Shown in pieces: positions 6,580 to 42,226 of a DNA stretch of 64,000 bases (position 1 is its first letter; each line of letters begins with the position of its first letter). Where the stretch lies: positions 96,001 through 160,000 of IMG/VR virus record IMGVR_UViG_3300010885_057925. One strand, written 5' to 3'. Below the pieces are notes generated by a model. That model saw only the letters and a program-made list of their open reading frames with translations. It did not search any database and was not told the origin of the DNA. Source of the stretch: a virus. A program made the position numbers and the translations under genes.

Positions 6580-6582
6580 CTC

Positions 6583-7664: not shown

Positions 7665-7953
7665 TCTCTTCCTCTTCTTCTTGGATCGATGTTAGCTGTT
7701 TCGCTACGTAAAGTATCGTCTCTCTTGACTTCCTTATGTCTTCAACAGCGCGTTTAATCTCTGGTGAATCATAAAAGAGTGGTACTTTCAGTATCTTGGA
7801 AATTGAATTATATCTCTTATCCAAGGCGTCAAGTGATTCTTCGATCGCGTCTTGAACACGTAACATCGTAAGGCCAAGTTTGTAATTGTAATACAACGAG
7901 GCTATCAATGCTATTGTCTCTATTAAAAGAAGCACGATCATGAATATCATCAC
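7639..7953 (-). CDS. Hypothetical protein with N-terminal transmembrane helix
   Basis: Hydrophobic N-terminus followed by a coiled-coil-like segment. Confidence 0.55.
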   Translation of the reverse strand: MMIFMIVLLLIETIALIASLYYNYKLGLTMLRVQDAIEESLDALDKRYNSISKILKVPLFYDSPEIKRAVEDIRKSRETILYVAKQLTSIQEEEEESGSSKKDS

Positions 7954-9113
7954 TTTAAAATATCTCCGATTGTGCTCTCATAAAATTCATTGATCGCCAG
8001 CGGATTATGAGAATTAATCAAAATCTTAGATAAATCAGCGGCCCATTGTCTTGGATTTTCAGAAGAGTTCTTAAACTTTCTGACTTTCTTCTTGAAATCA
8101 GACTCTCTAACCTCGGCCCACTTTGTTCCAGCGATCCAGATATTATTGTCGACTCTGCTAGCATGTATTGGAGTCATATCGTATTCTAGCTTCACAAACT
8201 TTCCCTTGCCCATGAAGTCCATGTGGCCAGATTGCTCAGTTGCAATCACCGGTAGTCCGCTAGCTGCAGCCTCAAGAATTGGAAGACCAAATCCCTCGCC
8301 ACGAGTAGGAGCGACTAGAGCTTTAACGGTGCTGTGACGATAAAGACCAGCAATCTCAGAATTGGACATTATGCCATGAATGACGTGAACTCTCGGGAAT
8401 GGGCCACGACGAACCTCTTTCAGAGTATTTCTGAGAGCATTTTCAACTCCAGCCCAATCGAGTCTAGTTCCACGCCCGACGTTTGTCTTCACGATGATGC
8501 CTACGTCTGGATCGTTCGCGAACTCCTCACAAAGCCACTTTAGAGCAAAGAAGATATTCTTTCTATCGTTGAAAGGGTTGTTACCTGTCAACGTCCCGAC
8601 AAGAAGAAAATTGAACTTAGTCTCAAAATTAGCCTCAAATCTACAATTTTCATCCAAAATTTCTGGAATGAAGCTTTCGGGTATCACGACAATTGGAGTC
8701 GTTACGTCTCCCGTATCTCGAAGAGTCTTTTCACAAAAAGTCGATGGAACAACAACGGTATCCATCGAATTGCAGCACTTTATCCACTCTGGGTTGCATC
8801 TATCAGATTCTACTACAGCCGTCACTCCAACGTTCTTGTGAGCAAGCTCGGTAGACCACTCGTTCGGAAGTTGGATCTGAAACGAAACATCAAACTTCTC
8901 GCTGGGGTCTGCGCTTCGCTTCATGATTTCTCCTATTAATCCACCTTCTGCAGACGGATTAACGTGCCAGCTCGTAGAGCCCCATGGAAGTATTTGGACT
9001 TTGATATCATCGCTCTGATGCTTCGCCAGCAACCAACGAAATACCTGACGAGCGTGATTTCCATAACCAGACTCGCTGAGAAGTGGTCCTCTTACCAGTA
9101 TCTTCTTACTCAT
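7950..9113 (-). CDS. Glycosyltransferase, GT4 (GT-B) family
   Basis: SGYGNHAR and RGEGFGLPILEAAASGLPVIAT motifs. Start moved to ATG 9113 (ATGA overlap). Confidence 0.9.
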   Translation of the reverse strand: MSKKILVRGPLLSESGYGNHARQVFRWLLAKHQSDDIKVQILPWGSTSWHVNPSAEGGLIGEIMKRSADPSEKFDVSFQIQLPNEWSTELAHKNVGVTAVVESDRCNPEWIKCCNSMDTVVVPSTFCEKTLRDTGDVTTPIVVIPESFIPEILDENCRFEANFETKFNFLLVGTLTGNNPFNDRKNIFFALKWLCEEFANDPDVGIIVKTNVGRGTRLDWAGVENALRNTLKEVRRGPFPRVHVIHGIMSNSEIAGLYRHSTVKALVAPTRGEGFGLPILEAAASGLPVIATEQSGHMDFMGKGKFVKLEYDMTPIHASRVDNNIWIAGTKWAEVRESDFKKKVRKFKNSSENPRQWAADLSKILINSHNPLAINEFYESTIGDILK

Positions 9114-10351
9114 AACGTCACCTTCTTCCAGGCATTGTATCTTGTCTTCCAATTTTCTATCGTCTCTTTCAATGTTTCATCCCAACGATTTATGACATTG
9201 TCGTAGGAAAACTCTTCCTGCACGTAGCGACGTGCTTTCTCTCCCAACGCTTTTCTTTCATCAGGTGAAAGCCTGTAGAGCTTCTCTATCGCGTTGGCAG
9301 TAGTTTCATTCGAGACGTAATCTTCGTATATGTAAGGAACAACCTGCGATCCGACTAGCGTTCGATTCTCAATTGGAAGAGCGACCCCATTCTCAGATCC
9401 ATCACGATGATCAATCACCTGACGTGTCAATCCGCCAGTCGTTGCGGCGATAATTGGACGACCGCACTGCATAGCTTCAAGAGTCGCAAGACCGAAACCC
9501 TCTGCATACGAGATGTTGATGCATGCGTCAGATATGTTATGCAGAATGTTCATCTTCTCAAAATCAATCCGATCGGTTGAGAAAATTACGCTGTCTTGAA
9601 CTCCAAAAAACTTGACTACCTCATGAAGGTTTGGTCCCTCCTGGTCAAGAGGATCGGTGTGCATGATAAGGGACGCGTCCCGCTTTCCCTCTTGCTTGAT
9701 CTTCTTTGCAAAGATGGACCATGCCTCGATCACATCGCTGGGACGCTTTCGGCGAGCATTTCGATTGACCCAGAAAAGAACAAAGTTATCTTTCTTGGTT
9801 GGGCCAAGAATCTCAACCTTTCTAGCCAACCTCTGCTCGTCAGTTAGCGGATAGAAAATCTCTGGCGGTAGAGCGTGAGGTATGAAGTTTGACTTCTCAG
9901 GAAAATCCTGCTTGCAGATCTCATACGTAAGATACGAATGACAGTTGATCAGATCCGTAGAATCATAAAACGGAGCGTTAAAGGCAGGCTTCGGCCAATT
10001 GTCCCAGACATGCCACCAAGCGATTGGGCAAACCTGGTGGATCTCGTCTTCCATTTCAAAGAGCCATACGAAAAATCTAGGGTCAGTGAAAATGAGAATC
10101 AGATCTGGCTTCTCAGTTGCGAGCGTGACCCGAAGCATCTCTTTTGTGCCGAACCCGTCAATGGGCTTGATGATGAAATCATCATTCACTACGATAGTTC
10201 GGTAGTCAGAGTGCTTAATAGCGGCACCGAATTGCCTGAATGTCCACCCACCTTTCTTCAGCAGACCATTCACCAAGTGTCTTGTTTGCGTTCCAACTCC
10301 AGAGGTTGACAGAGCATGGTCAGACAGTATTAGAACCTTTTTCTTCTGCAA
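9110..10351 (-). CDS. Glycosyltransferase, GT4 (GT-B) family
   Basis: SYAEGFGLATLEAMQCGRPII and NRNARRKR motifs. Confidence 0.9.
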   Translation of the reverse strand: MQKKKVLILSDHALSTSGVGTQTRHLVNGLLKKGGWTFRQFGAAIKHSDYRTIVVNDDFIIKPIDGFGTKEMLRVTLATEKPDLILIFTDPRFFVWLFEMEDEIHQVCPIAWWHVWDNWPKPAFNAPFYDSTDLINCHSYLTYEICKQDFPEKSNFIPHALPPEIFYPLTDEQRLARKVEILGPTKKDNFVLFWVNRNARRKRPSDVIEAWSIFAKKIKQEGKRDASLIMHTDPLDQEGPNLHEVVKFFGVQDSVIFSTDRIDFEKMNILHNISDACINISYAEGFGLATLEAMQCGRPIIAATTGGLTRQVIDHRDGSENGVALPIENRTLVGSQVVPYIYEDYVSNETTANAIEKLYRLSPDERKALGEKARRYVQEEFSYDNVINRWDETLKETIENWKTRYNAWKKVTL

Positions 10352-10399
10352 GAAACTTTCCTCTTTCGAAAAATTAAGAAGAGAGAACCATAAGTAAAT

Positions 10400-11194
10400 T
10401 TAAGTACAGTGCTCTGTGTTGAGATAAGGGCAGTACTGGCAAGACTGTCGATTCTTAATCTTCGTTCCCTTTCTCATGCCTGCAATCGTGTTAGAAACAA
10501 GCTTGTTAGCTTTCTGCATCGCGACAGGACCGACCGAGACCGTGAAGAGCTCAACACACTTCCCGGCCTTAGCTCCCTTCTTAAGGAGCACGTAACCGCA
10601 CTTGATGTAACGAGCTCCATCGAAAAGTTCCCTGTGCTTATTCATGAGATACGACTTGTAGAGAGCAACCTGAGCCAGAGTCAGCGGGTCCTGCTTCTTC
10701 TCAACTCTCCAACCGCCTGCCCCGGCCGTCTTCCAGTCAAGAACCCAAAGATCGTAGCCGCCCTTCTCTCGTGGAACTTTGATTATGCAGTCAACGAAAC
10801 CCTTGAAGTATGCATCTCGATCTTCGATCGATTCGTAGAGCGCTTCCTCCGCAGACACCGTCTCCCAACCAGGGAAAGTCTCATCGAGCCATGCAGGAAC
10901 TTCTTCCAGCGCATTTTTTGCCCAAGTTGCCCACTTCTCAGCTTCTGGAAATCCCTTAGAGTCCCAGGCTGCAACAATATCCATGAGGCAGCGCTCGATG
11001 TCCATCACACGAGTCTTCAGGTATCCTTCACATGCTGAGTGAACTGCAGTTCCAAAATCTAAGTGCTCGCTTGGCTTGTCGAGGTTGATCTTCTTGATCT
11101 GCTGAAGGTAGTGACGGTACGGACACTCGTTCCAGCTTCTGACCTCAGAGTAAGAAACGTGAGCTTTTCCTGTCGGAAGAAGATTATCAGACAA
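10400..11194 (-). CDS. PD-(D/E)XK exonuclease, Cas4/AddB-like with Fe-S staple
   Basis: SYS...CPYRHY, FGTAVH, GFVD...DWKT, QVALY and CQYCPY...C. TTG start after GGAGGG. Confidence 0.85.
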   Translation of the reverse strand: MSDNLLPTGKAHVSYSEVRSWNECPYRHYLQQIKKINLDKPSEHLDFGTAVHSACEGYLKTRVMDIERCLMDIVAAWDSKGFPEAEKWATWAKNALEEVPAWLDETFPGWETVSAEEALYESIEDRDAYFKGFVDCIIKVPREKGGYDLWVLDWKTAGAGGWRVEKKQDPLTLAQVALYKSYLMNKHRELFDGARYIKCGYVLLKKGAKAGKCVELFTVSVGPVAMQKANKLVSNTIAGMRKGTKIKNRQSCQYCPYLNTEHCT

Positions 11195-12284
11195 GTTCCC
11201 TCCTTGACTTCTGCAGAGCAGATCCAACTACCTGATGCATATCGTAATACTTGTACTCAGCCAATCGACCTCCGAATAGAACGTTAGACTCAAGTTCTGC
11301 AACTTCTTTGTACTTTCGATAAATTTCAGTGTTCTTTTCATCACCGATCGGATAATACGGAGTTGCGCTACGATCCCAAGCGATTGGATACTCCTTGGTG
11401 TAGATCGTGCTCTTCAGCTTGTCCAACCGTTCTGGTGTGAAATGCTTATGTTCGGTGATTCTGGTGTAAGGGACTGATGCATCACCGTAGTTTACGATGG
11501 CATTTCCTTGAAAGTCTCCCTCTCTCTTCTCTTCCTCAAAGCGAAGAGATCGATACTCTAGATCACCGAACTTGTAATCGAAAAACTCATCAATCTTTCC
11601 AGTGTACACAACTCTCTTCGCCATCGAATTCCACTTCTCGCGATTGCTGAAGTAGTTTTCTCCCAGCGCGATTTCGCAACCATTCAACATATTGTTGAAG
11701 ATGTTTGTGTATCCTTCTTTTGGAATTCCCTGGTACGTATCGTTGAAGTAGTTATCATCGAATGTCATCCTGATGGGAAGACGTTTGATAATTGAAGCCG
11801 GCAAGTCTTTTGGATCACGCATCCACTGCTTGGTAGTGTATCCACGAATGAAAATATCGTAGATTTCAGGCCCGACTTGAGAAAGAATCCAGTCTTCTAG
11901 ATTACTTGGATTCTCGCGTGGAACTCGAACAGTCTCGAGCTTTCTCATAGCTTCGTCAGGAGTATTGACTCCCCATACCTGATGAAGCGTCATCAAATTA
12001 ATTGGGAATGAGTACATCCTGTTTCTATGCTTGACCTTGGGTCGAAGCACAAAATTGTTGAACTCGGTGAATTGATTCATAAACTTCCAAATTCTTTCAT
12101 CGGAAGTATGAAAGATGTGCGGGCCGTACTTATGAACGTCGATTCCATCACGACGCTCGCTATAGCAGTTTCCACCGATGTGCTCTCTTCTGTCGATTAG
12201 AAGAACGCTCTTACCCTTGCTTCGAGCTTCATGAGCAAATACACTGCCGAAAAGACCAGCACCAATAATGAGGTAGTCGTACAT
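11187..12284 (-). CDS. glf: UDP-galactopyranose mutase
   Basis: YDYLIIGAGLFG, HKYGPHIFHT, YQGIP, TRITEHKHF and GRLAEYKYYDMHQV motifs. Confidence 0.97.
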   Translation of the reverse strand: MYDYLIIGAGLFGSVFAHEARSKGKSVLLIDRREHIGGNCYSERRDGIDVHKYGPHIFHTSDERIWKFMNQFTEFNNFVLRPKVKHRNRMYSFPINLMTLHQVWGVNTPDEAMRKLETVRVPRENPSNLEDWILSQVGPEIYDIFIRGYTTKQWMRDPKDLPASIIKRLPIRMTFDDNYFNDTYQGIPKEGYTNIFNNMLNGCEIALGENYFSNREKWNSMAKRVVYTGKIDEFFDYKFGDLEYRSLRFEEEKREGDFQGNAIVNYGDASVPYTRITEHKHFTPERLDKLKSTIYTKEYPIAWDRSATPYYPIGDEKNTEIYRKYKEVAELESNVLFGGRLAEYKYYDMHQVVGSALQKSRRELV

Positions 12285-12289
12285 GGCTT

Positions 12290-12318
12290 ATATTAAACCA
12301 CGTACGACTACTTTTCAA
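12290..12318 (-). promoter_or_regulatory. Sigma70-like promoter upstream of glf
   Basis: TTGAAA-N17-TAATAT, 5 nt before the ATG. Confidence 0.5.
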
Positions 12319-12326
12319 TCTTAATT

Positions 12327-13211
12327 CTACTTGAAGCTGTTTAGATAATCCTCAAGCTTTACCTTCGGCTCCCAACCAAGCTCATTGAAAGCTCGATTAT
12401 TGTTTGCTAGAGTCTCTCTTGTCTCACCGACTCGCTCAGAAACGTAGAGGCGATCTCCACCGATCATAGCTGCAAGATCATTTATCGAGTAATTTTTACC
12501 AGTTCCGATGTTGACCGGTCCGACCACCCACGGCTTTTCAGCTGCGATTAAATTGGCCTTGACAGCATCACTTATATGTGTGAAATCTCTTCGCTGATTT
12601 CCGTCACCCACAATTGTCATGGTATCTCCAGCAGCTTTCTGTCTCATGAAAAGACCCATAACAGGAGCGTACTCACCCTTTAGCGGCTCGCGTGGACCGT
12701 AAACATTGAAGTAGCGAAGAGAGATGGTCGAAAGCCCGTACAGCTTCGTGTAGAGCTCACAAACTTCCTCACCCTGCCACTTAGAGAGCGAATAAGGAGT
12801 TGCGCAACCCTTCGGAGCACTTTCGATAAACGGAGGCTTGGACGCGTGACCGTAGTAAGAAGACGAAGCTGAGTAGACAACGCGCTTCACACCCGCTAGA
12901 CGACTGCAATCAAGAACTCTCTGCGTCCCTAGCACGTTGACAGAGAAGCACTCTGATGGGTTGTTAACCGTTGGCTGGATTCTGGACCTAGCAGCGAGAT
13001 GGAAAACAACGTCAACACCATCGTACAAGTCCTGGTGAAGGTTGCGAATATCAGCGTCTATGTTTGTTGCAGCATCGTTCCAGTAGAACTGGTCATTTTG
13101 TGGCGCCGACTTATCATCAACGCAGATGACTTCATCACCACGAGCAATCAGAGCATCAACAACATGGGAGCCGATGAACCCAGCACCGCCAGTCACAAGA
13201 TAACGCATCAA
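12327..13211 (-). CDS. NAD-dependent nucleotide-sugar epimerase/dehydratase
   Basis: TGGAGFIGSH, YSLSK, LRYFNVYGPR and GDGNQRRDFTH. Confidence 0.92.
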   Translation of the reverse strand: MMRYLVTGGAGFIGSHVVDALIARGDEVICVDDKSAPQNDQFYWNDAATNIDADIRNLHQDLYDGVDVVFHLAARSRIQPTVNNPSECFSVNVLGTQRVLDCSRLAGVKRVVYSASSSYYGHASKPPFIESAPKGCATPYSLSKWQGEEVCELYTKLYGLSTISLRYFNVYGPREPLKGEYAPVMGLFMRQKAAGDTMTIVGDGNQRRDFTHISDAVKANLIAAEKPWVVGPVNIGTGKNYSINDLAAMIGGDRLYVSERVGETRETLANNNRAFNELGWEPKVKLEDYLNSFK

Positions 13212-14179
13212 GAGCTCCTCTTGCTGACAGCGCGACCGATCTGCTTCTCCCAGTCTCTGTCGTTCGGGCTTCGAATCTCAAGATTCTTCGACCAAGCTGC
13301 TTGCATCACAGTCGGCTTGACGTCGTAATAACGAGCAACGCTCATGAGAGCGTTGATATCCTTAGGGAAGCAATGACCGCCGAAGCCACGCACATAACGA
13401 CCATCATGAGTTGGGACAGGACCTGGAACGGACCAGTGAGACTCACCCAAACGACGATCAAACTTAGCGTACTCAACAACCTTGTCGTAATCGATGTTGA
13501 GACCATCTGCGTCAAGAGCTTCACAAATCTGTGAGATCTCATTAGCAAACGATACCTTGACTGCCAGCATACAATTGGTCACGTACTTGACCATCTCGGC
13601 AGTTGTAGAGCTCGTCTTAACGATTGTAACTTTCGGGAAAGCTCGCTGGAATACGTTCTTGACAGTGTTGATATAGGGCCGTGGGCCACCCAGAACGATG
13701 CGATTCTGCTCTCGCATGTCATTCACAGCATTCGCTTCGGTCAGAAACTCTGGGTTGAAGACGACGTGGAGGCCTTTGTCGTTGAACTTCTTATTCCAGT
13801 TTTCTGTCGATCCGGGCGGAACAGTGGACTTCACCACAGCGACTCTCTCAGGAGAGTCAGAGGTGTAAGAAGAGTTAGCAATCTCTGCCAAAACCCCCTC
13901 AACAATCGAAGTATCTGCCGCTCCGTCCTCATACATCGGAGTTGGTACGCAAACAAAGAACACGCCAGAGAAACCAGAAGTTCCCTCACATTCTGTCACG
14001 AACTCTGCTACAGAGCCCGGGTAGATAACTTCGTCAGAGTTATTCCTTCGGAAGCCATTCATTCCACCGTTAGCCAGCTTTCCCGCCTTGTCATACACGA
14101 AGACTCTCTCGCCGCGTTCGGAAAATACCGTCGTGAGGCTGCCACCGACGAAACCTTGACCGATAACACCAATGCTCAT
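13208..14179 (-). CDS. UDP-glucose/GDP-mannose dehydrogenase family protein (lacks C-terminal domain)
   Basis: GQGFVG, CVPTP, KSTVPPG, FNPEFL, AEMVKY and GFGGHCFPKD. Start follows an AAGGAG SD. Confidence 0.9.
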   Translation of the reverse strand: MSIGVIGQGFVGGSLTTVFSERGERVFVYDKAGKLANGGMNGFRRNNSDEVIYPGSVAEFVTECEGTSGFSGVFFVCVPTPMYEDGAADTSIVEGVLAEIANSSYTSDSPERVAVVKSTVPPGSTENWNKKFNDKGLHVVFNPEFLTEANAVNDMREQNRIVLGGPRPYINTVKNVFQRAFPKVTIVKTSSTTAEMVKYVTNCMLAVKVSFANEISQICEALDADGLNIDYDKVVEYAKFDRRLGESHWSVPGPVPTHDGRYVRGFGGHCFPKDINALMSVARYYDVKPTVMQAAWSKNLEIRSPNDRDWEKQIGRAVSKRSS

Positions 14180-14212
14180 TTTCTCTCCTTGATTGATTAT
14201 CACATAAGAGAG

Positions 14213-14629
14213 TTACATTTTCAAATCTAAAATTGAACTGGCTATCTTTTTCTTTAGATCGGTGAGGTTGTAGTCGTGATTTCTGCTGCAGAAATAGACG
14301 GGTTTTCCGAGTTCATCGCCTGTGAATCTCTTATTGACATAATCGGAGCCAAGTATTCTGACATCGAAACTTACTCTCGCAAGCAATCTGCGAAGATCTT
14401 CTTCAGTGTTGTAATAGACGACTTCGTCAACATGCTTCAAGGCTCGAAGTATCTCGGCTCTTTCTTCCCAAGACTGAACTGGCTTACACTTACTTGGTCT
14501 ATCGATAGTTGGGTCATCCTGCAATGCTACGATCAGACTTTCGCAGATTGCTTTTGACTCCCGAAACATTCGAATGTATCCAGGGTGGATTAGGTCGAAT
14601 GACCCAGCGATTAGTCCCGATTTATACAA
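14213..14629 (-). CDS. Cytidylyltransferase (TagD/glycerol-3-phosphate CTase-like)
   Basis: [10 protein letters not shown] variant of HxGH, plus ERAEIL and LGSDY. Confidence 0.8.
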
Positions 14630-15594
14630 GACGACTCCAGCTGTCTGTAATCCTCTTCATACATAAGCCGGGCCAATTCTTTGAACGTAGTTCTTGGTGA
14701 CCATCCCAATTTTTCTCTTGCTTTAGAGAAATCTCCTTCGAGCCATGGAACTTCATGAGGACGCTTAAGACGATCATCTATCAAAAGATGCTTATCGACG
14801 TCAAGGCTGGCAATCTGGAAGACCTCGTCTAAGAATTCTCTGACCGTGTGAGTCTCACCTGTCGCAATGACGTAATCATCGGGCTTGTCCTGTTGAAGCA
14901 TCAACCACATCGCCTCAACGTAGTCTTTCGCGTAACCCCAGTCGCGGAGCGCGTCAAGATTGCCGAGAGCGATCTTGTCTTGGAGACCGAGCTTGATTCG
15001 TGCAGCTGCAAGCGTGATCTTGCGAGTGACAAATGTTTCACCACGACGAGGGCTCTCATGATTGAAAAGAATGCCTGAAGATGCGTGAATGCCGTAGCCC
15101 TCGCGGTAGTTGCGAGTGAGACCGTGAGCGAAGACCTTGGCGCAGGCGTACGGAGACGCTGGCATTAGACGTGTCTCCTCATTCTGAGGGTGCTCGGGAT
15201 TATCACCGTACATCTCAGACGAAGATGCTTGATAGAACCTGCAATCAGGTTGCATGGTCCTGATGCACTCAAGAAGTCGAAGAGGTCCCATCGCTACCGA
15301 GTCCACAGTTTCCTCAGGCACTTCAAACGAGACTCTAACATGCGACTGCGCCGCGAGGTTGTAGACCTCATCAAACTTCTGGTTTGCGAAGAGACGGTAG
15401 AATGCTCCAGCATCGTTCATAGAGCCGTAAACAAGCTGAAAGTTTTTGTGAGCAAGAAGATGATCGATTCTGTCAGTTGCGAGAAGAGAGGTTCTCCGCT
15501 TCATGCCAACGACTTTGTATCCCTTTTCTAGCAAAAGCTCGATGAGGTACGACCCGTCTTGGCCTGTGCATCCAGTCACAAGAGCTGTTTTCAT
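14611..15594 (-). CDS. gmd: GDP-mannose 4,6-dehydratase
   Basis: [42 protein letters not shown] and RDWGYA. Confidence 0.97.
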
Positions 15595-17341: not shown

Positions 17342-17355
17342 GTTCTCTCTCTTTT

Positions 17356-19654: not shown

Positions 19655-19892
19655 TTGGCAACATCACGCCAACAAAGATATCCAGCAGATGCTGGACTGT
19701 CTTTATCTGATGCCACTGGATCGGTAAATCCAGAACGTTGATAGAGAACTTATGATCAACATCGATCACAATTTGCGCGTAATCGATGCTGTCAATTCCA
19801 ACTTCATCAAAAACTGTGTCAAGCTCAACTTGAATGCTCGGATTGACTCTTCGGATTGCCTCTACAATAGAATCAAAAACTTCTTCTTTCAT
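19647..19892 (-). CDS. Acyl carrier protein
   Basis: Small and acidic, with a GIDSID phosphopantetheine serine motif. Start moved to MKEEVF. Confidence 0.85.
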   Translation of the reverse strand: MKEEVFDSIVEAIRRVNPSIQVELDTVFDEVGIDSIDYAQIVIDVDHKFSINVLDLPIQWHQIKTVQHLLDIFVGVMLPNE

Positions 19893-19911
19893 GAGCTTAA
19901 CCTTTTCAGCA

Positions 19912-20763
19912 TTATAAATCGTGAATGCTCGAAAGTTCAATGATGCTGTCGTTCAAATGATACTGCTTGACTCTCTCGCTTGTTGACATGAATCTTTCAG
20001 TCAAACGATCTCCACGGCGAGGAGCGATAATCTCTTTTGCTCTGTCTGGATACAGATCATTTGCAACGTCTTCCATCAGACGAAGATGACCGCTGTTTAC
20101 TATGAATCGACCTGGCTCAGATCTAAGCATCGCAAAAATGATAAGTCCAGCCGACTCTTCGACCGAGATGAAGTGACGCTCGCAAGTCGGAGCAACTTTG
20201 ATAGGCTCGCTCTCTAGGACTTTGTCCCAGATCTCAAATACGTTGCCCTGCGTCTCGACGACATTAAAGAATCTTGCCACGGAACCACCGCTGTTCATGG
20301 TCATTCTCTCTGCGATCAGCTTGCTAGCTCCGTAAACGATCTCTGGGTTTGCAGACTTGCAAGTAGAAGTCAGAATCATCCTACAGCCATCCGGCTTATT
20401 GTCCAGTAAGTTCTTAGTTCCGATTGTGTTGATCGAAAGTGTCATCCAAGTCTCGTGTTCTCCGACAGGAGCATGCTTCGCTCCCGCGATATTCACGATG
20501 ATGGTTGGCTTGTAGTCGTTCAGAACTTGCTTCACTCTGTCAAAATCAGTTATGTCCATCTTGGTGTGATCACCCTCGATGTCAGTCGACAGAAAATTGA
20601 CATTATGGCGCTTGAACTTTTCTACCAGCACAGTGCCGATGCTGCCATTAGCTCCCGTGATCAGAACTCTCTCGTTCAAATTTTCTAATCTGTTCTCAAC
20701 GCTTACGAGCTGCTGAAGCTCTTTCCTGCCCAGAACTTTCTCGAGTGAATACTTGTCCATCAT
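19912..20763 (-). CDS. CapD/PglF/FlaA1-like nucleotide-sugar 4,6-dehydratase
   Basis: LGRKE, ITGANGSIG, AGAKHAP, YGASKLIAER, RFFNV and RRGDRL. Confidence 0.8.
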   Translation of the reverse strand: MMDKYSLEKVLGRKELQQLVSVENRLENLNERVLITGANGSIGTVLVEKFKRHNVNFLSTDIEGDHTKMDITDFDRVKQVLNDYKPTIIVNIAGAKHAPVGEHETWMTLSINTIGTKNLLDNKPDGCRMILTSTCKSANPEIVYGASKLIAERMTMNSGGSVARFFNVVETQGNVFEIWDKVLESEPIKVAPTCERHFISVEESAGLIIFAMLRSEPGRFIVNSGHLRLMEDVANDLYPDRAKEIIAPRRGDRLTERFMSTSERVKQYHLNDSIIELSSIHDL

Positions 20764-20819
20764 TTCTAGAACTCTCCTTTAATTTTTCTATCGAAAGTTT
20801 TCGTTCAAAAACCGTGATC

Positions 20820-21287
20820 TCAAGTTCGATCAAACGCTCTTTTCACCATGACAATATTATCATGACAGATTCCGTGAAAATTAGTTTTTTCGTACAACTT
20901 TTTCGACCAGAAAGCTGATGTATCTGAAGGCTGGTTCACTACGCCTCCTGAGACAAAAACTTCCGGGAAAGTCCAGGGAATAGACTTGGATGTCATAGTC
21001 AACTTATCGTTCTCATGCCAGAACCAGTTTAAACCAGATTGATTCAAAAAAGAGATGCACTCTAGATTCTTTGCATGAACCCACAGCTTGCTTGACCTCT
21101 CAAGGAGAAATCTCTCATCTATTCTATTCTCAGGAAAATCATGACCTAGCTTGAGAGATCCATCGCTTAACCAAAGATCTATCTCAACGTCGAAATCAAG
21201 AGACAGAGCTAGATCTATTTGATCAGGAAGGTTCTCACGTTCTTTCAGCTTGCCTTCTAAATTTCCTCTGTGAGATATGAATATCAC
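20820..21287 (-). CDS. PLC-like/GDPD-like phosphodiesterase fold protein
   Basis: ISHRGN, EN, DVEIDLW, LGHD and LWVHAKN. Confidence 0.7.
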   Translation of the reverse strand: MIFISHRGNLEGKLKERENLPDQIDLALSLDFDVEIDLWLSDGSLKLGHDFPENRIDERFLLERSSKLWVHAKNLECISFLNQSGLNWFWHENDKLTMTSKSIPWTFPEVFVSGGVVNQPSDTSAFWSKKLYEKTNFHGICHDNIVMVKRAFDRT

Positions 21288-21997
21288 TTTGCGATCCTGA
21301 GGTATCGCTGCAGATCTTCTGGGGTCCCTATCCCATGCATTTTATGAACGTAGAAAGGAATGACGCTCTTGCTGTCTCCTATCATTTCATTGTAGACGGG
21401 AGCAATGTAGAACTCGTTATTAGTTCTGATATTCTTTTCTATCATGTCTTTTGCAGATCTAACGAAATCGGATCCCTTTCTGTACCAGTAAATTCCGCAA
21501 GTAGCTACATCAGATATTGGATTTTTTTCAGCAACCTCTGACACAAAACCGTCATCCACTTTAACAAAAGACCACTTCGGATGAACCGCGTTAAACGTAA
21601 AAACGATTCCATCGACCGACGTCATCTTTTTTACTGTCATGAAATTTTCCCTGCTAAACTCGATTATTTGATCTGAGTTTGCGATCAAGAGGTCATCGTC
21701 GTTGTTAATAAACTCTTCTGCTAGAAGCGCCGTGCAGGCTGCACCCTCTGTAAGAGAATCTACCTGAACTATTCTGCAGTTGCCGTTAGTCACTCTCTTT
21801 AAGAGAGAATGAATTCCATCGAACTTAGCAAGATGCTCTTTTCTAACCAGAAATATGTACTCAGCGTCAAAACCTAGATTTTCAATGACAGCCTGTATCA
21901 TGGGTCTACCATCTACGTCTATCAGGGGCTTCGGAAACGTGTACCCTTCAATCGAAAACCTTGAACCCTCACCCGCCATCGGAATTAGAACTTTCAT
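21284..21997 (-). CDS. Sugar-phosphate nucleotidyltransferase
   Basis: IPMAGEGSRF...PKPLI, TEGAACT, VAEKNPIS and GTPEDL. Confidence 0.88.
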   Translation of the reverse strand: MKVLIPMAGEGSRFSIEGYTFPKPLIDVDGRPMIQAVIENLGFDAEYIFLVRKEHLAKFDGIHSLLKRVTNGNCRIVQVDSLTEGAACTALLAEEFINNDDDLLIANSDQIIEFSRENFMTVKKMTSVDGIVFTFNAVHPKWSFVKVDDGFVSEVAEKNPISDVATCGIYWYRKGSDFVRSAKDMIEKNIRTNNEFYIAPVYNEMIGDSKSVIPFYVHKMHGIGTPEDLQRYLRIAK

Positions 21998-22622
21998 CTA
22001 TAAACTCCAAGTAATTTCTAAGATTCACATCTTCGAACCCCTTAACTGCCCAGAGGTATCTGGCAAGAGATTTCTTTGCAGATTCTATTCCCTTGTCAGA
22101 ATCTTCTACACAAAGCGTCTGCTCTGGATCTGAGTTGAGCTCTTTGATTGCGTAATCATAACAATCCGGGAACGGCTTGTTTCTTTTGACGTCTTCGTTG
22201 GTAACGATTCTGTCAAAATACTCGATTTGACCAGTCGAGTTAAGCATCTTCTCTGCAGTTTGTCTGATCGAGTTGGTCACGCAAGCAATTTTTACTTTAT
22301 TTTCTTTTAGAAATTGAAGAAGTTCAATTTTCTTTGGGTCAATCTCTGCGTTTCTTTCGATTATGTCGATCGTGTAATCTTGCTTCAGCTTCCAAATCAT
22401 TTCTGATTTTTCTCGATCTACTCCAAGAATCTCAAGCTTAACTTTGGTAGGGAGTCCGTTGAATTTTGATTCGTGATCCTCTCTTGATATCGTTACTCCA
22501 GCAACTTCGTAGAGAGCTTGATTCAGTGATTTGTAATGCCACTCACACGCATCGACCAAAACTCCATCAAGATCAAATAAAACGCAAGACACGTGCTTGC
22601 CGCTTTTTCCAAAATTTCTCAA
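21969..22622 (-). CDS. HAD-family phosphatase
   Basis: FDLDGVLVD, VTNS, KPFPD and VEDS. Confidence 0.9.
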   Translation of the reverse strand: MRNFGKSGKHVSCVLFDLDGVLVDACEWHYKSLNQALYEVAGVTISREDHESKFNGLPTKVKLEILGVDREKSEMIWKLKQDYTIDIIERNAEIDPKKIELLQFLKENKVKIACVTNSIRQTAEKMLNSTGQIEYFDRIVTNEDVKRNKPFPDCYDYAIKELNSDPEQTLCVEDSDKGIESAKKSLARYLWAVKGFEDVNLRNYLEFIDESSNSDGG

Positions 22623-22663
22623 ACTTACCCCTCTTTTATCGTTAGAAGATTAGACTGTCGTTG

Positions 22664-23311
22664 CTATCTCAAAGTAAACACTTTGTCCTCGACCCATGGT
22701 TTATCAAACGTTCTTCTCAAAAGAACAGTGTAGTCGAATCTACTAACTTTTGATCTGAAACTTGACATATGGTATCGTAGCATCGTCTCAGGATGACAAG
22801 GAACTCCCGCCGCTGAGTACTCGTTTATCTTATCATAAAGAGCGCAGTAGTGATTCATATTCTCATATGACGAGAAACAAAGCATGTCAAAAAGACCGCC
22901 TCTCCAGTCTCCTCCCTGAGGTATCCAGAGAGAACTCGGATCGAATTCGTTGATCTTCAGCGGACTGCAATACTTCACGTCGAACCTAGTCTTTAGGACA
23001 ACATCGTAATCTCCTTCGATTATGTCAAAAGACTTTTTGATGTTCTTCCACATCGCAAACACTGCAGCGGGATCAGTCTCAGGCGGCTTATTGTAGAAGC
23101 AAGAGTCTGATATCTTGCTCACGTTCTGATCTTTTGAATCTATGATTGTCTTTTTTGGATTGAAAAGCTTCACTGCTTCAGCGACTCTCTCTTCTTCATA
23201 AGCATGAAAGAATATGTCGCAGTCGTTGTAATTTAGTATGTTGCTTTCTAGAGACGGATAGCATTCATCAAAATTTCTAACGTCCCCGCTCAGTATTATC
23301 GCAACTTTCAT
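22664..23311 (-). CDS. Putative glycosyltransferase-like protein
   Basis: VAIILSGDVRNF...YDVVLKTRFDV...HPE pattern seen in glycan loci, plus island context. Confidence 0.5.
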   Translation of the reverse strand: MKVAIILSGDVRNFDECYPSLESNILNYNDCDIFFHAYEEERVAEAVKLFNPKKTIIDSKDQNVSKISDSCFYNKPPETDPAAVFAMWKNIKKSFDIIEGDYDVVLKTRFDVKYCSPLKINEFDPSSLWIPQGGDWRGGLFDMLCFSSYENMNHYCALYDKINEYSAAGVPCHPETMLRYHMSSFRSKVSRFDYTVLLRRTFDKPWVEDKVFTLR

Positions 23312-24132
23312 AGCTTGTTCTCGAACTTAGGCATAAGATCAAAGAAAAGCTCCATGTTTTCATTAGCTTCAAACGGTCTAATGGAGTGATATTCGCTCAG
23401 CTCTCCAGATCTAACAGCTTGCATCAACTCATCGCACACTCTGATTCTGCCGATCGATCTGTCGATTCTTCTAGAACCCCATTCGTTGTGAAAGTTAGTG
23501 ACAAGTTCTATCTTAGCTCCGGGTTCATCTCTTAACTTTTTTCTAATCAAAGAGCTAGAATAAGCTTCGTCGATGCCCCAGAGACTCATACCTTCTCTAA
23601 AGTTTGGAAGATTGACTCTCCAATCGTAGATCTTATGAAGCTCATCAGACCAGTTTTCGTTGATTTCGTGAATTGACTTGAATTGAGAACCAAAACCCAC
23701 GTGATGTGAGGATGGAAAATCAGCCCCAGGATGATTATATCCGTCGGAGAAACCTACAACGTATTTTCCATCTCTCAAAAACGCCTTGATCATTTTAAAG
23801 AATCTATCACCCAAAGGTATCTGATCTATTCCCGAGATCATACATCTGTCATTTTCAAATCTAGAAGCACCGTAGTACGCGCCCCAAGTGCACGTCCAAT
23901 CTCTCTGCTCAATCAATATGTCTGGAGATCTTTCTAAAAGAAAGATTTCTCCATGGTCGTCCGATAGCTTCTTTAGTTTTCTGAGCTCGTCGAACTCTTC
24001 TTGATTACCAGAGAAAAATAGCGTTGGGACAGTGTTAAACTTCTCATGATATACTTTCGATACAAAATTCCAGAAGCCTAAGTAATCAGAATTGTTTGTC
24101 AACGAAAAGATGACTCTATCAACTATTCTCAT
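23308..24132 (-). CDS. Putative GT-A-like protein
   Basis: SGIDQIPL (variant DxD) and WGIDE motifs, plus island context. Confidence 0.4.
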   Translation of the reverse strand: MRIVDRVIFSLTNNSDYLGFWNFVSKVYHEKFNTVPTLFFSGNQEEFDELRKLKKLSDDHGEIFLLERSPDILIEQRDWTCTWGAYYGASRFENDRCMISGIDQIPLGDRFFKMIKAFLRDGKYVVGFSDGYNHPGADFPSSHHVGFGSQFKSIHEINENWSDELHKIYDWRVNLPNFREGMSLWGIDEAYSSSLIRKKLRDEPGAKIELVTNFHNEWGSRRIDRSIGRIRVCDELMQAVRSGELSEYHSIRPFEANENMELFFDLMPKFENKL

Positions 24133-24814
24133 TTTTATCTCGCAAAGAATGGATTCTTCTCATCATCTCTGGATTCATATAATGAAAAGTTATCTTTTCG
24201 TCGGTTCCGAATGAATCGATATTTCCAGTGCAAAACTTTTCTGTGTGAATGAACCTGCACTCTCCTGAGTTTCTGAACCAGAATCCTATCGATATGTCGC
24301 TGTTATAAGCTGTTGGGAAATCTTTGGTATCTAGAAGGTATTTCTTGATGGCAGTAAAACACTCTCTAGTCATCACAAACCCTGCTCCTCCGCTGGGATA
24401 TGTCACCGGTAAGCTGCAGTCTCTACCTCTCAAACTTTGAAGGGGCATTCCTTGCTCAAGAGCATGATTCTCAGAGTAGTCATAGAAAACGTGGCCAAGA
24501 CAAGCTTTTTCATTGGGAGAAATTTTAAGCGACTTGATCTCTGCTTTTAACGAGCTAATATCAACGTAGGTGTCATCATCGCTGATCATAATGAAATCAA
24601 AGTCATCAAAATTCTCTAGAGACATCACGAAATAAGCTAACTTAAAAGGAACATACACGTAACCGGTAGGAAGAGTAGAGAAAGAAACCATATCGTTTCC
24701 TTCGCTGTCACCCACGAAGATGTATGCATCAGAATTTTTAGCGTAAGTTTCTCTAATCGCATCTTGAAGTGATCTGTTCTTATCACATGTTATGATTGCA
24801 TTTAGAATCTTCAA
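24119..24814 (-). CDS. Fringe/GT31-like beta-1,3-glycosyltransferase
   Basis: SDDDTYV, YPSGGAGFVMT, DISIGFW and ITFHYM, the motif order of Fringe/core-1 GalT enzymes. Confidence 0.75.
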   Translation of the reverse strand: MKILNAIITCDKNRSLQDAIRETYAKNSDAYIFVGDSEGNDMVSFSTLPTGYVYVPFKLAYFVMSLENFDDFDFIMISDDDTYVDISSLKAEIKSLKISPNEKACLGHVFYDYSENHALEQGMPLQSLRGRDCSLPVTYPSGGAGFVMTRECFTAIKKYLLDTKDFPTAYNSDISIGFWFRNSGECRFIHTEKFCTGNIDSFGTDEKITFHYMNPEMMRRIHSLRDKNENS

Positions 24815-25683
24815 ATTGCACGTCCTTCCGTCAAGATGTATAAGAGATGCTTAGATCTTACATCATAGCTATGATAATTTTCAGACCTTGCGCGACCAAG
24901 ATGAGCTATTTTCTCTCTTTCAGCATCGTTTCTGGTGAAATGATCTATTAGAGCCATGAGCTCGTCTGCGTTATGATAGACGACAATCTCCTCATTAATC
25001 TTGAAGAGTCTTTCGATATTAGGCGTGTAATTTGTGAGCAGCATCGCTCCAGAACCTGTAGCCTCAAAAGTTCTGAAGTTCACGTCGTCAGCGATGTTTA
25101 TGTTGAAAGCTATCTTGTAGCTTGACAGAGCTCGCACCATATCGTTTCCAATCACGAATATGTCGCGCTTCAAATTAAACTTTGACGATATCAGATTAAG
25201 CCAATTCTCTCTGTTGCCGATGAGAGAGCCGCAAAACCCAACGTCAACGTTTCTTTCAACGCTAGAGTCAGGCTTTATCAAATCAGAAGGATACCCATTC
25301 GGAAACCAGACAGCTGAGCTGACCAAACCTCTGAAGTGATCGATGTGCTGTATGTTGGACATCAAGAGAATGTCGAACTTGTGCTTGAGGCAATGAGCTT
25401 GATGATTCTGAAGAGAGCAATGAGAATCGATGCTCCAGAACAATTTCTTTCCCTTGAACTTTGAGATGTCTGGATGCCACCCAGAGTCATAATTCTCAAG
25501 GCTTAGCAGGGCATCACAATCTCTGGATATCTCGTCGAAAGGGACGGAAAAATTATTGTAATTCAACCCCCAAACGACAGCTTCATGACCGGCTCGCTCA
25601 ATTCCTCGCTTAAGGCACAGAGCCTCTCTGAACTCTCTATTTCCTTCGTTTCTTCCGCGTTCCTGTATCAGTAAGATCTTCAT
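24811..25683 (-). CDS. CgeB-like glycosyltransferase (GT-B)
   Basis: VGFCGS, YKIAFN, NFRTFEATGSGAMLLT and HSYDVR. Confidence 0.82.
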   Translation of the reverse strand: MKILLIQERGRNEGNREFREALCLKRGIERAGHEAVVWGLNYNNFSVPFDEISRDCDALLSLENYDSGWHPDISKFKGKKLFWSIDSHCSLQNHQAHCLKHKFDILLMSNIQHIDHFRGLVSSAVWFPNGYPSDLIKPDSSVERNVDVGFCGSLIGNRENWLNLISSKFNLKRDIFVIGNDMVRALSSYKIAFNINIADDVNFRTFEATGSGAMLLTNYTPNIERLFKINEEIVVYHNADELMALIDHFTRNDAEREKIAHLGRARSENYHSYDVRSKHLLYILTEGRAI

Positions 25684-26330
25684 ATGACTGCTCTCAACGC
25701 TGCTTTTTGCTCTTCAACAGCCACATCATTTTCATCGAATGCTAGACCCACAAACTCATCGCTGACGCGTTTGGTCGGAAATTGAATCTTTTGAAAGAAC
25801 TCATCATGAACAATCGAGAACTGAGCGACCTTTGGATAGATAATTTCGCGCAAGAAATTTTGATCAACTTGCCAAAAATCTCCCTTCACGTACTCACGAA
25901 TTAGATCGCTCATGTTACTGAGAAGCGGAGCTCTAGCTCCCCACATTCCTCCTAAAATCTCTGTAGCGTGGTGAGGGTGATCACGCATGATATGAAACAT
26001 CGCGCTGCTTCCGAGCCACTGCTTCACTGCAGCTACTTCACGAGCAGTTATCCTGCTATCGCAGTCTCGACTGATCATCACGTCAACGTCAGGGTCTGAG
26101 GCTGCCTCGAATCTCCAGAACATGCCCGTCCAGTCGCCGGGCTTCTTCATATCGATTACGTGTGCTCCACGATCATGAAGACCGCTGATCGTTTCAGAAG
26201 GAGTATTAGTACCTACATAAAAGCGGGCCTGCCATCCAGGATATAGTTCACTCACAAGCTCAGCGTTCCTAAGAGCTCCGATGTTATACTTTGGGTTATC
26301 ACCCCATAAAGAGTAAGAAACTACTCTCAT
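25680..26330 (-). CDS. Putative glycosyltransferase (GT-A-like)
   Basis: SYSLWG, MFWRF, SRDCDSR (DxD), MRDHPHH, LGGMWG and DQNFL. Confidence 0.6.
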   Translation of the reverse strand: MRVVSYSLWGDNPKYNIGALRNAELVSELYPGWQARFYVGTNTPSETISGLHDRGAHVIDMKKPGDWTGMFWRFEAASDPDVDVMISRDCDSRITAREVAAVKQWLGSSAMFHIMRDHPHHATEILGGMWGARAPLLSNMSDLIREYVKGDFWQVDQNFLREIIYPKVAQFSIVHDEFFQKIQFPTKRVSDEFVGLAFDENDVAVEEQKAALRAVI

Positions 26331-27916
26331 CGATTCAACCCGAACATGTGCTGAGCTCTTTGAGCGAACATCATGTGATCTCTCATCACGTGCTGATTGT
26401 TGACTGCGTACGTCATGTCGATACCCTCCTTCGTATTATCAGGGTGCTCATGGCGGATGATTACATCGTCCACATATGTTTGCTTTCCAAAAGCGAAAGC
26501 CACCTGCATAAACTCGTTATCACAGTAGAACGAGACGTAATCGGGGTGGTAGAGATAGCCGAAACGATCGTAGTATCTCTTTCCTAAAACGATCAGAGTG
26601 TTGAGCTTCTGCTTCTGATAACCATCGGAGAACCAGATGACACCATCTAGATCAGGGTAGTTCACCTTCATCTGCCGAATTATCTCGAGATCGTAACCCT
26701 CTCTTTCTGGAATCATATCGTCAGATGCTAGCAGGCAGATATCAAAATCTCGACCAGACATGTCAGCGTTGACAGCTTGAATCTTTGTCTTACTGTTGCC
26801 GTAGCAGACCTCAACGTTTTCGTACGACTCGAATCTTTTTCTGACTTCCTCGTTGTTCATCGTAGAATCGTCAAGATCACATGATACTAAGAACTTGACA
26901 TTCTTAGATCTGCTAAGATTTCTGTAGCTCTCAAGAACTGAGAAAAATTTCTCTGGACGACCGCGGGTTGGAAACTTCACCAGAAGATTGGGCTCTAAGT
27001 TTTCACGACCCGATATGATATCCAGAGTCCTCTGCCAGAAAACTGCTCTTCTATTGTGGAGCCACCTGAGAATGTTGAGAGGTTCGTACTCAAGCCACGT
27101 CTCTCCAACGTGCTGAACATTCTCGTTAGATATCACCTGACATCCCAATAACTTAGACTCAGTTACCATTCTATTAGAAACATCAGCTCCGCGTGGTAGA
27201 CAGACATAACCTTCAGAGTTAGACATAGCTTCTAAAACTTGATCTGGGCTCATGCTCTTGATCAAGCTGAAGATCTTGTCATTTTCCAGTAACCACTTCT
27301 TAGCGTCATCAGTTCCCTTTATCCACGAGTCGGAGTCAAGAGTCAGCCACCCAGACTTTTTTCTATTTGGAAGAGACTGGATAAGAGGAATAATCTTTTT
27401 GAAGAACTCGTCTCCAAATACCGCTGAGAGAACAGAGCAGTTTGCATTTTTCAAGCTTGGGAATCTATCGAAGTACCTTTGCATATGCTTCTGAGAGCAA
27501 AACCAAACTTGCCGAGCATTGAGATAGAACTGCTCAATTAGCTTGCCCCAGGGCTCAGCCTCGCAGCGGCACTCCTCACCGCCCTCTGCCAGATGTCTCT
27601 CAACCGATCTCCATCTACAGAACTTATAGTCATGCTCAAACACGGAGTAGCTAATTTTAGATAACGAAAAAGCGCTTATAAGAGTTGGATTCAATTGAGA
27701 AAAATTACCAAAGACCCAGTGACAGTTTGGTTGACTCTCTACCATCTCTCTAGTCAGATGAGCTGAGTGAACAGTGGCGAACGGAACAGGAGCTGAGCTA
27801 TGCAGAGCGTCCATTGACAGCTCAGCCCCTCCGACCAGATCTGACAGAAAAAAATCTTGAACAAAGATGATCTTAAACTCAGGCTTCTTTTGCTCTGAAA
27901 ATGGACTGTTGAACAT
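26327..27916 (-). CDS. Two-domain glycosyltransferase (GT-B N-terminus fused to GT2-like C-terminus)
   Basis: GGAELS...RMVTESKLLGC followed by KFPTRGRP, ASDDMIP, FYCDNE and HEHP. Confidence 0.78.
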   Translation of the reverse strand: MFNSPFSEQKKPEFKIIFVQDFFLSDLVGGAELSMDALHSSAPVPFATVHSAHLTREMVESQPNCHWVFGNFSQLNPTLISAFSLSKISYSVFEHDYKFCRWRSVERHLAEGGEECRCEAEPWGKLIEQFYLNARQVWFCSQKHMQRYFDRFPSLKNANCSVLSAVFGDEFFKKIIPLIQSLPNRKKSGWLTLDSDSWIKGTDDAKKWLLENDKIFSLIKSMSPDQVLEAMSNSEGYVCLPRGADVSNRMVTESKLLGCQVISNENVQHVGETWLEYEPLNILRWLHNRRAVFWQRTLDIISGRENLEPNLLVKFPTRGRPEKFFSVLESYRNLSRSKNVKFLVSCDLDDSTMNNEEVRKRFESYENVEVCYGNSKTKIQAVNADMSGRDFDICLLASDDMIPEREGYDLEIIRQMKVNYPDLDGVIWFSDGYQKQKLNTLIVLGKRYYDRFGYLYHPDYVSFYCDNEFMQVAFAFGKQTYVDDVIIRHEHPDNTKEGIDMTYAVNNQHVMRDHMMFAQRAQHMFGLNR

Positions 27917-27959
27917 AGTACATTATAAGACCCATGAACAAAACGAAAATGCAGATACA

Positions 27960-27989
27960 AAAATGGTCGGCCCGAAGACCGACCATTTT
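27960..27989. terminator. Intrinsic terminator hairpin (potentially bidirectional)
   Basis: AAAATGGTCGG-cccgaaga-CCGACCATTTT, directly after the fibre gene and separating it from the glycan island. Confidence 0.75.
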
Positions 27990-28003
27990 CTCAACTCAGC
28001 TGA

Positions 28004-30593: not shown

Positions 30594-30600
30594 TAACTAT
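30594..30600 (-). promoter_or_regulatory. ATANTTA putative late promoter
   Basis: ATAGTTA in the gap upstream of the fibre gene. Confidence 0.45.
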
Positions 30601-42205: not shown

Positions 42206-42226
42206 CAGAAACTCTCCTGTATTAAA

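Follow-up and report, generated by a model that had tools for sequence, protein, structure and literature searches.

Large clusters of sugar genes are known from several aquatic phages of the T4 type. P-SSM2 carries 24 'LPS' (lipopolysaccharide) genes, for which Sullivan et al. proposed a change of the host surface (PMC1079782), and pelagimyophages and cyanomyophages have a host-recognition cluster (HRC) in which fibres are combined with many glycosyltransferases (GTs), Ugd and RfaE and for which Zaragoza-Solas et al. proposed O-chain modification (PMC7029224). S-SCSM2R has a 22-gene cluster with 13 GTs (PMC12801897), and such clusters in jumbo phages were reviewed by Iyer et al. (PMC7824862). 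The name 'LPS genes' has been attached to the sugar clusters of aquatic T4-like and jumbo phages for two decades, and in none of these has the target been tested. Here, we analyzed an island of 24 genes at positions 7950-27916 of a window of 64,000 nucleotides (nt), which comprises bases 96001-160000 of the single IMG/VR viral record IMGVR_UViG_3300010885_057925 (171,517 bp); coordinates are window positions unless a contig or locus is named. The island is of this already known kind, and a target on the virion is an alternative to the published host-surface reading. Judged from its predicted genes, this phage-borne locus assembles glycans entirely in the cytoplasm, and it is placed within the hypervariable fibre ('host-recognition') region. 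The best single reading, to which we give slightly less than even credence, is that it glycosylates the phage's own virion proteins.

Compared by their descriptions, the clusters of P-SSM2, S-SCSM1, S-SCSM2R and the pelagimyophages share with the island nucleotide-sugar enzymes (Gmd, epimerases, Ugd, RfaE-like) and many GTs; they are likewise variable between related phages and often accompanied by tail-fibre genes. The island differs from them in having its own N-acyl amino-sugar route dependent on acyl carrier protein (ACP) together with a UDP-galactopyranose mutase (Glf), in a GT-B domain that is particular to the lineage, joined to GT-A or GT2 and encoded immediately behind the fibres, and in ending with a conserved triad of PD-(D/E)XK nuclease, GT4b and GT4a.

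Chlorovirus PBCV-1 and Mimivirus encode complete donor pathways and soluble GTs, in clade-specific cassettes, for the glycosylation of capsids and fibrils. Donor pathways, soluble GTs and cassettes recur in the island, and homologues of the GT-A domain of its 529-amino-acid (aa) protein and of its 216-aa protein (35-48% identity) occur on a giant-virus contig. In contrast, giant viruses have eukaryotic hosts and different acceptors, and synteny is not shared. A phage precedent is the glycosylation of capsid and tail in mycobacteriophages (Freeman 2023, as cited in PMC11256854 and PMC12619734). According to these two sources, soluble GTs of Che8 and Rita glycosylate capsid and tail proteins in the cytoplasm with neither lipid carrier nor export, as proposed for the present system; the acceptors are the C-terminal tails of capsid and tail-tube subunits. 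Unlike the island, these phages have no donor-sugar pathways, and their GT genes, two to a few in number, are located close to the end of the genome. Finally, soluble GTs including GT4 and donor-sugar genes within the locus are common to the island and to the O-glycosylation of bacterial serine-rich repeat (SRR) adhesins (GtfA/GtfB) and flagellin (FlmG, Maf; PMC7591256), in which fibrous targets rich in Ser/Thr are modified ahead of export or assembly, as the fibres would be here.

Gene content of the island

All 24 open reading frames (ORFs) of the island lie on the minus strand, and 17 of its 23 junctions overlap by 1-43 nt, the remaining six being gaps of 9-56 nt. Thus, the about 24 co-oriented and mostly coupled genes reported in a preliminary description of this DNA were read correctly. 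Genes were assigned using Pfam and NCBIfam (Table 1); since most scores stay under the equivalog cut-offs, exact substrates are inferred. The matches recovered each of the donor-sugar enzymes named before, i.e., glf, gmd with fcl, a Ugd-like dehydrogenase, an epimerase, a cytidylyltransferase and an aminosugar route. Gmd and the Fcl-like reductase (14611-16532) provide a route to a GDP-6-deoxyhexose, probably GDP-L-fucose, and the genes of the variable middle cassette taken together are predicted to form an ACP-dependent route to an N-acyl amino-dideoxy sugar. By these assignments, the activated sugars encoded are UDP-galactofuranose (UDP-Galf), a GDP-6-deoxyhexose, a uronic-acid-type UDP-sugar, an N-acylated amino-dideoxy sugar and one or two further donors. 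Nucleotide-sugar pathways and several GTs stand together in one operon, as in bacterial surface-glycan loci. A hairpin with an 18-bp stem at 12273-12311 encloses the ATG of glf; it may control translation or mark a junction where the border of the cassette recombined.

The firm GTs are the 529-aa protein, the Glyco_trans_1_2 protein, the GT31/Fringe-like protein, GT4b and GT4a; with two or three probable ones the total comes to about eight, as had been estimated before. The N-terminal domain of the 529-aa protein ('N300') was modelled with AlphaFold2 as a compact GT-B fold (predicted local distance difference test, pLDDT, about 90). The top Foldseek matches of the 529-aa protein were EXT1, EXT2 and EXTL3 (E about 5e-7), with a template modeling (TM) score of only 0.19-0.25 over the whole chain. 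As modelled, it resembles the exostosins, which have GT-B and GT-A in one chain, in architecture only and not in sequence membership. The N300 family has 124 members, all on metagenome contigs (the longest listed being 110-300 kb), and no tblastn match was found in cultured phages. Its fusion partner is GT-A here and GT2 in distant relatives; different GT-A domains occur as partners as well, and N300 is also found as a standalone protein. The neighboring 216-aa gene is conserved together with the 529-aa gene in relatives. In tblastn, actinophage GTs without an assigned role were matched only weakly by GT4a (22-29% identity). On the giant-virus metagenome-assembled contig mentioned above (L006, IMGVR GVMAG-M-3300023184-50, 9995-12001), the GT-A domain of the 529-aa protein occurs twice (44-48% identity), once on either side of the homologue of the 216-aa protein (35% identity).

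For membrane segments, a 19-residue window with a Kyte-Doolittle hydrophobicity of at least 1.6 was applied, and no such segment was found in any of the 24 island proteins. Likewise, no island protein matched the Wzx, Wzy, ABC or priming-transferase (WecA/WbaP) families in Pfam or NCBIfam, and none of 107 genes that follow the first island gene in 16 related loci encodes a polytopic membrane protein (more than three predicted helices). The preliminary description had found no Wzx/Wzy, ABC exporter, priming transferase or polytopic protein in the island, and these searches bear it out, now also for the related loci. The island therefore has soluble phage GTs without lipid-carrier machinery, as is the case in virion glycosylation of the mycobacteriophage type. 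Nevertheless, the absence of Wzx/Wzy is still compatible with an action on undecaprenyl-linked intermediates of the host.

Table 1. Positions of the island genes, their surroundings and the DNA-modification module (window positions unless a contig or locus is given).
Feature	Position	Strand	Remarks
gp6-like baseplate wedge gene	2763-4601	-	
gp25-like baseplate wedge gene	4602-5084	-	
Small protein, 104 aa	7639-7953	-	One N-terminal membrane helix; directly outside island
GT4a	7950-9152	-	Pfam/NCBIfam
GT4b	9110-10351	-	Pfam/NCBIfam
PD-(D/E)XK nuclease	10400-11227	-	Pfam; first member of conserved triad
UDP-galactopyranose mutase (Glf)	11187-12284	-	263 bits
Epimerase/decarboxylase-type enzyme, short-chain dehydrogenase/reductase (SDR)	12327-13211	-	Pfam/NCBIfam
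Short nucleotide-sugar dehydrogenase (Ugd), 331 aa	13208-14203	-	N-terminal and central domains only, without C-terminal domain
Small cytidylyl/adenylyltransferase (RfaE domain II / TagD-like)	14213-14629	-	Pfam/NCBIfam
Gmd	14611-15594	-	429 bits
Fcl-like reductase	15591-16532	-	GDP-L-fucose synthase model, 251 bits vs. cut-off 500
Variable middle cassette	16520-24132	-	Eleven genes, 274-aa possible GT through short DegT
Short DegT aminotransferase	16520-17341	-	Pfam/NCBIfam
LpxA-like acyl-ACP acyltransferase	17356-18087	-	Pfam/NCBIfam
FabG-like SDR	18084-18758	-	Pfam/NCBIfam
Adenylating enzyme	18758-19654	-	Pfam/NCBIfam
ACP	19647-19940	-	Pfam/NCBIfam
Polysacc_synt_2 dehydratase (4,6-dehydratase)	19912-20763	-	Pfam/NCBIfam
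155-aa protein	within 16520-24132	-	No assigned function
Sugar-1-P nucleotidyltransferase	21284-21997	-	Pfam/NCBIfam
HAD hydrolase	21969-22622	-	Pfam/NCBIfam
DUF7796 protein, probable GT	22664-23311	-	
Possible GT-A, virus-specific type, 274 aa	23308-24132	-	Atlas look-alikes; lead only
GT31/Fringe-like GT-A	24119-24814	-	Pfam
Glyco_trans_1_2 (CgeB-like) GT-B	24811-25683	-	96.5 bits
Probable virus-type GT-A, 216 aa	25680-26330	-	Atlas look-alike clusters named hexosyltransferase/glycosyltransferase; leads only
Bifunctional GT, 529 aa	26327-27916	-	N-terminal ~300 aa GT-B-like (N300, without Pfam family), C-terminal GT-A (phrog_14945)
Intergenic region, 87 nt	27917-28003	-	Strong G+C-rich terminator hairpin, T-run, then TATAAT 5 nt before first island ATG
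Fibre-like protein, 855 aa	28004-30571	-	S/T/G-rich; ATAGTTA 28 nt upstream of start
Fibre-like protein, 303 aa	30613-31524	-	S/T/G-rich; C-terminal module common to 855-aa protein and cyanophage virion/tail-fibre proteins
Fibre-like protein, 1063 aa	31537-34728	-	S/T/G-rich (15/14/13%); length and sequence differ among relatives
PIN-PhoH fusion protein	35084-36409		Anchor gene upstream of fibres across lineage, to 48% identity
DNA-hypermodification module	G000:C1:2-5258 (locus L046), outside window; L052:6717-12509		

Conservation, transcription signals and a motif on virion proteins

Relatives of the first island gene lie in the same setting in six IMG/VR loci. Since the same island was found between the same flanks in several independent IMG/VR contigs, the concern that the contig might be a chimera can be set aside, and the locus is that of a phage. 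Using the PIN-PhoH gene, 23 related loci were collected. The order PhoH, 108-aa gene, fibre(s) and a protein starting with N300 is present in 16 of them and is kept down to 48% PhoH identity. In the nearest relative, the flanks are 84-97% identical and both island ends are kept; in place of the middle cassette there are seven different genes, whose products include a methyltransferase, an FAD oxidoreductase and a GT2/GT92-like GT, and the fibres differ as well. A hypervariable region joining fibre genes with GT and sugar genes, as described for host-recognition or 'LPS' clusters, is thus present. The G+C content is 40-43% across 18001-26000, in the variable middle cassette, vs. 45-54% in the flanks, which is consistent with recent acquisition.

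The short DegT and the short Ugd were considered as pseudogenes and rejected as such, as both lengths are kept in other contigs: DegT has 269-273 aa in four of them, and the 331-aa length of Ugd is kept in the nearest relative at 94% identity. In the relative L003 (18208-19818), the Ugd-like gene consists of two ORFs of 372 and 98 aa about 200 nt apart, which could reflect an insertion or a frameshift.

Within the island, conservation extends furthest for the GT4b-GT4a pair with the PD-(D/E)XK nuclease, a gene absent from the preliminary gene list. The three genes were found in the related genomes G001 and G002 and in Microcystis phage Mel-JY01 and Flavobacterium phage immuto, the closest cultured relatives by gp6 (~33% identity). 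In immuto, an additional sugar cluster exceeding 10 kb comes after the triad. At the level of sequence, this conserved triad common to the present phage, immuto and Mel-JY01 is newly described here.

The island probably has its own transcription start, perhaps a leaderless one, because a terminator hairpin and a TATAAT box precede its first gene (Table 1), as in relatives; the layout recurs in four of them (L001, L003, L004, L005). TATAAT-N5-7-ATG also stands before several other genes of the contig (e.g., 63222-63240), and TATAAT boxes 5-7 nt before start codons suggest leaderless transcripts from -10-only promoters. Scans for sigma-70 promoters and terminators across 6500-26400 gave no excess over shuffled background, and the T4 late promoter TATAAATA was not found in the window. 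Another element, ATA[G/T]TTA, is rare in the genome and enriched 10-35 nt upstream of many minus-strand genes including fibre, gp25-like and sheath genes (sites at window positions 30599 and 5109, and many in contig 1-96000). It is a candidate late promoter and was found at no island gene start.

We counted [S/T]-G-S in the proteins of the contig and compared the counts with 2000 composition-preserving shuffles. In about 11 large proteins, the motif is 4-9 times as frequent as expected, and none of the 2000 shuffles reached the observed number; the other 142 proteins of the contig contain 25 motifs vs. 31 expected. The enriched proteins have different folds and comprise the three fibres (e.g., 21 vs. 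5.8 expected in the 1063-aa fibre and 13 vs. 3.3 in the 855-aa fibre), the 499-aa and 1120-aa proteins that adjoin the baseplate, several large proteins without assignment and the two sheath paralogues, where nine of the 12 motifs precede the stretch matching the sheath family phrog_23. Most often, the motif is preceded by V, L or I. The two sheath paralogues are adjacent and very long (1000 and 1032 aa; G000:C1:44393-50527), with large regions ahead of the conserved sheath part.

A motif excess was also detected in the structural proteins of Mel-JY01 and of immuto (in the latter 54 observed vs. 12.7 expected, 4.2x). It is absent in ACG-2014i, S-CAM4 and T4 (1.3x each), none of which is among the tblastn hits of GT4b or GT4a. 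Mel-JY01 had been considered as a GT-free control for the motif and was dropped due to its own GT cluster, and the three phages just named were taken instead. That the excess tracks the GT4 pair is the strongest hint at a protein acceptor, the correlation being weak because the carriers are related phages.

Possible targets of the glycan

If the island glycosylates the phage's own virion proteins, its enzymes would build a multi-sugar O-glycan directly on Ser/Thr of outer virion proteins, before or during assembly. Acceptors would be the fibres, baseplate-distal proteins and, in both sheath paralogues, the outer domains, with [S/T]-G-S after a hydrophobic residue as candidate attachment site. 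The chain may be started or anchored by the conserved enzymes, i.e., GT4b with GT4a and the bifunctional GT-B/GT-A protein, whose gene directly follows those of the fibres. The outer sugars would depend on the exchangeable middle cassette, which would thus produce serotype-like variants of the particle surface. In a more specific form, which we put forward tentatively, a heteroglycan of fucose, Galf, uronic acid and an ACP-derived N-acyl amino sugar would sit at [S/T]-G-S turns of fibres, baseplate and sheath outer domains, its outer sugars being exchanged as cassettes together with the fibres to yield phage 'serotypes', and GT4b-GT4a would be the protein-priming enzymes. Several lines of evidence support virion proteins as target: the gene content and coupling of the island and its lack of membrane proteins; the absence of polytopic proteins from the 16 related islands, the conserved order of fibre(s) and N300-GT and the joint exchange of cassette and fibres; the frequency of [ST]GS in virion proteins, which is raised where the GT4 pair is present; the mycobacteriophage precedent; and, as detailed below, the unglycosylated DNA of immuto and the location of the DNA module elsewhere.

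However, a number of observations weigh against a virion target. With a terminator ahead of it and a TATAAT promoter of its own, the island is uncoupled from transcription of the fibres, so that late co-expression is unsupported; a virion target accounts neither for this promoter nor for the presence of a PD-(D/E)XK nuclease in a locus for protein glycosylation. In Mel-JY01 and immuto, the triad and the sugar genes lie in the replication/metabolism region and not among structural genes. The three motif-positive phages share related baseplate genes (~33% identity), and the [S/T]-G-S excess could be a lineage-specific structural turn that was inherited with the GT pair. Unlike the bacterial systems for SRR adhesins and flagellin, the island has no protein that reached the GtfA/GtfB, FlmG or Maf models, GtfA giving only 16 bits for GT4b. 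Finally, all published readings of similar clusters are host-surface modification.

The strongest competitor, which we regard as somewhat unlikely, is remodelling of the host envelope. Soluble GTs and donor routes would act at the inner face of the host membrane on undecaprenyl-linked host intermediates of O-antigen, capsule or S-layer glycan, a priming transferase, flippase and ligase of the host would finish the product, and the changed surface would block superinfection or the adsorption of progeny to debris. The enzymes are indeed of the O-antigen/capsule type, and GT4 enzymes are typically peripheral-membrane proteins. Placed behind a terminator, the sigma-70-like -10 box of the island may allow expression apart from the late fibre genes, and the joint variation of cassette and fibres would likewise suit a phage that modifies the glycan serving as its receptor. 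The comparable clusters of P-SSM2, S-SCSM2R, pelagimyophages and jumbo phages have all been read in this way (PMC1079782, PMC12801897, PMC7029224, PMC7824862). On the other hand, neither the island nor the 16 related ones contain a priming transferase, flippase, polymerase, ligase, ABC exporter or membrane acyltransferase, and a complete heteroglycan would have to pass host exporters, which are often specific. Moreover, envelope remodelling leaves unexplained why the [ST]GS excess tracks the GT pair and why the bifunctional GT is conserved directly after the fibres.

Another cytoplasmic acceptor, such as host flagellin, pilin or S-layer protein, or a soluble or secreted glycoconjugate made during infection, is improbable. 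Soluble enzymes without an exporter would suit it, and the immuto cluster is annotated with an acetyltransferase of the 'pilin glycosylation protein' type; nothing specific speaks in its favor, however, and the fibre adjacency and the virion-restricted motif excess would be left unexplained.

DNA as acceptor had been called less likely in the preliminary description, and this judgement is strengthened by a dedicated DNA module elsewhere in close relatives, inside which the contig ends. At its start, the contig has a P-loop kinase gene cut by the edge, then a 351-aa GT (weak Glyco_trans_1_2) and DnaE. Relatives with a 94-95% identical DnaE continue this series as DnaE, GT, kinase, a ThyA homologue, an SDR, a cupin, a thymidine kinase, a DHH protein and a dCMP deaminase, and kinase and ThyA homologue both lie within ~7 kb of the 351-aa GT in 50 of 58 IMG/VR loci. 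The model of this GT (pLDDT 92) has the T4 beta- and alpha-glucosyltransferases among its best fold matches. The ThyA homologue of the relatives is closest to CMP/dCMP hydroxymethylases; its best solved structure is the CMP hydroxymethylase MilA (E 2e-44), and the cytosine-specifying Asp is kept. Taken together, sequence comparison and the model make it very probable that the phage makes glycosylated 5-hydroxymethylcytosine with a dedicated DnaE-side module ~100 kb from the island. On the sequences compared, this module, newly described here, is distinct from the island, and with a separate module for DNA, DNA is an unlikely target of the island.

Known DNA-glycosylating phages (T4 with alpha/beta-GT; RB69 and DLP3 with arabinosyl-5-hydroxycytosine; RL38JI with Gal-Glc-Glc) resemble the island in their GT-B (GT4-like) enzymes and in that sugar-activating genes, such as those for a nucleotidyltransferase, a HAD phosphatase and Glf, are found in phage genomes (PMC13326640). 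Their clusters adjoin a ThyA-type base hydroxylase or hydroxymethylase and a nucleotide kinase, a signature which is found here beside DnaE. No such pair of adjacent genes was detected in or beside the island, and no ThyA homologue in the contig, including the island and its neighborhood; ThyX is present. A Tet/JBP search, which was run without a positive control, gave no match at the island or in the contig. Virion DNA of immuto, which has the triad, contained only dA, dC, dT and fdPreQ1 in liquid chromatography with UV and mass spectrometric detection and thus no glycosylated nucleoside (10.1101/2023.04.13.536721). Some points do favor DNA: GT4-like enzymes are known to build glycans of one to three sugars on phage DNA, in RL38JI with the use of a phage Glf (PMC13326640; 10.1101/2023.12.21.572611), a cytosine-type hydroxymethylase is encoded by close relatives, a nuclease lies inside the island, and in the 96%-complete relative G001 all GT1, GT2 and GT1_2 hits fall within the fibre-adjacent island. 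Nevertheless, with eight GTs and five or more donors, far above any known DNA glycan, and a conserved module with its own T4-BGT-like GT beside DnaE, it is very improbable that part or all of the island (e.g., Glf, the PD-(D/E)XK nuclease, GT4b and GT4a) extends glycans on 5-hydroxymethylcytosine.

If virion proteins are indeed the target, the phage particles of lakes and oceans would be coated with variable glycans, which would affect adsorption, host range, grazing, aggregation and recognition by the immune system or lectins, and tallies of 'auxiliary metabolic genes' would need to be read again. Handles gained are two cultured carriers of the GT pair (immuto and Mel-JY01), a candidate attachment motif and the separation of the island from the DNA-glycosylation module.

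The source phage and the flanking genes

The record is linear, has 50% G+C and is ~51% complete according to CheckV, i.e., about half a genome. A T4-like backbone is indicated by a gp23-family capsid gene (211 bits), the gp6-/gp25-like baseplate wedge genes at 2763-5084 and the two tail-sheath paralogues; a helicase and a PrkA/YhbH/SpoVR set are also encoded. On this gene content, we consider the contig a fragment of an uncultured T4-like aquatic phage. Remoter metagenomic relatives have 270-290 kb, so that 'jumbo', as used before, is a fair label for the lineage.

The preliminary description placed structural genes on both sides of the island. This is accurate for the upstream side, where the fibre genes follow directly; downstream come the small membrane protein, two small genes and a 484-aa protein, and the gp25- and gp6-like genes start only after these. 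The C-terminal module of the 303- and 855-aa fibres matches only 'virion structural protein' or 'tail fiber' genes of cyanophages. No match to the fibre proteins was found among solved structures, and a megablast search of the fibre region against cultured phages found none either. Although the module matches only cyanophages, a cyanobacterial host is not established, since psbA was not found in the contig. The PrkA-like serine kinase, YhbH-like and SpoVR-like genes form an operon at 40343-44724, with homologues in Thermus phages and huge uncultured phages.

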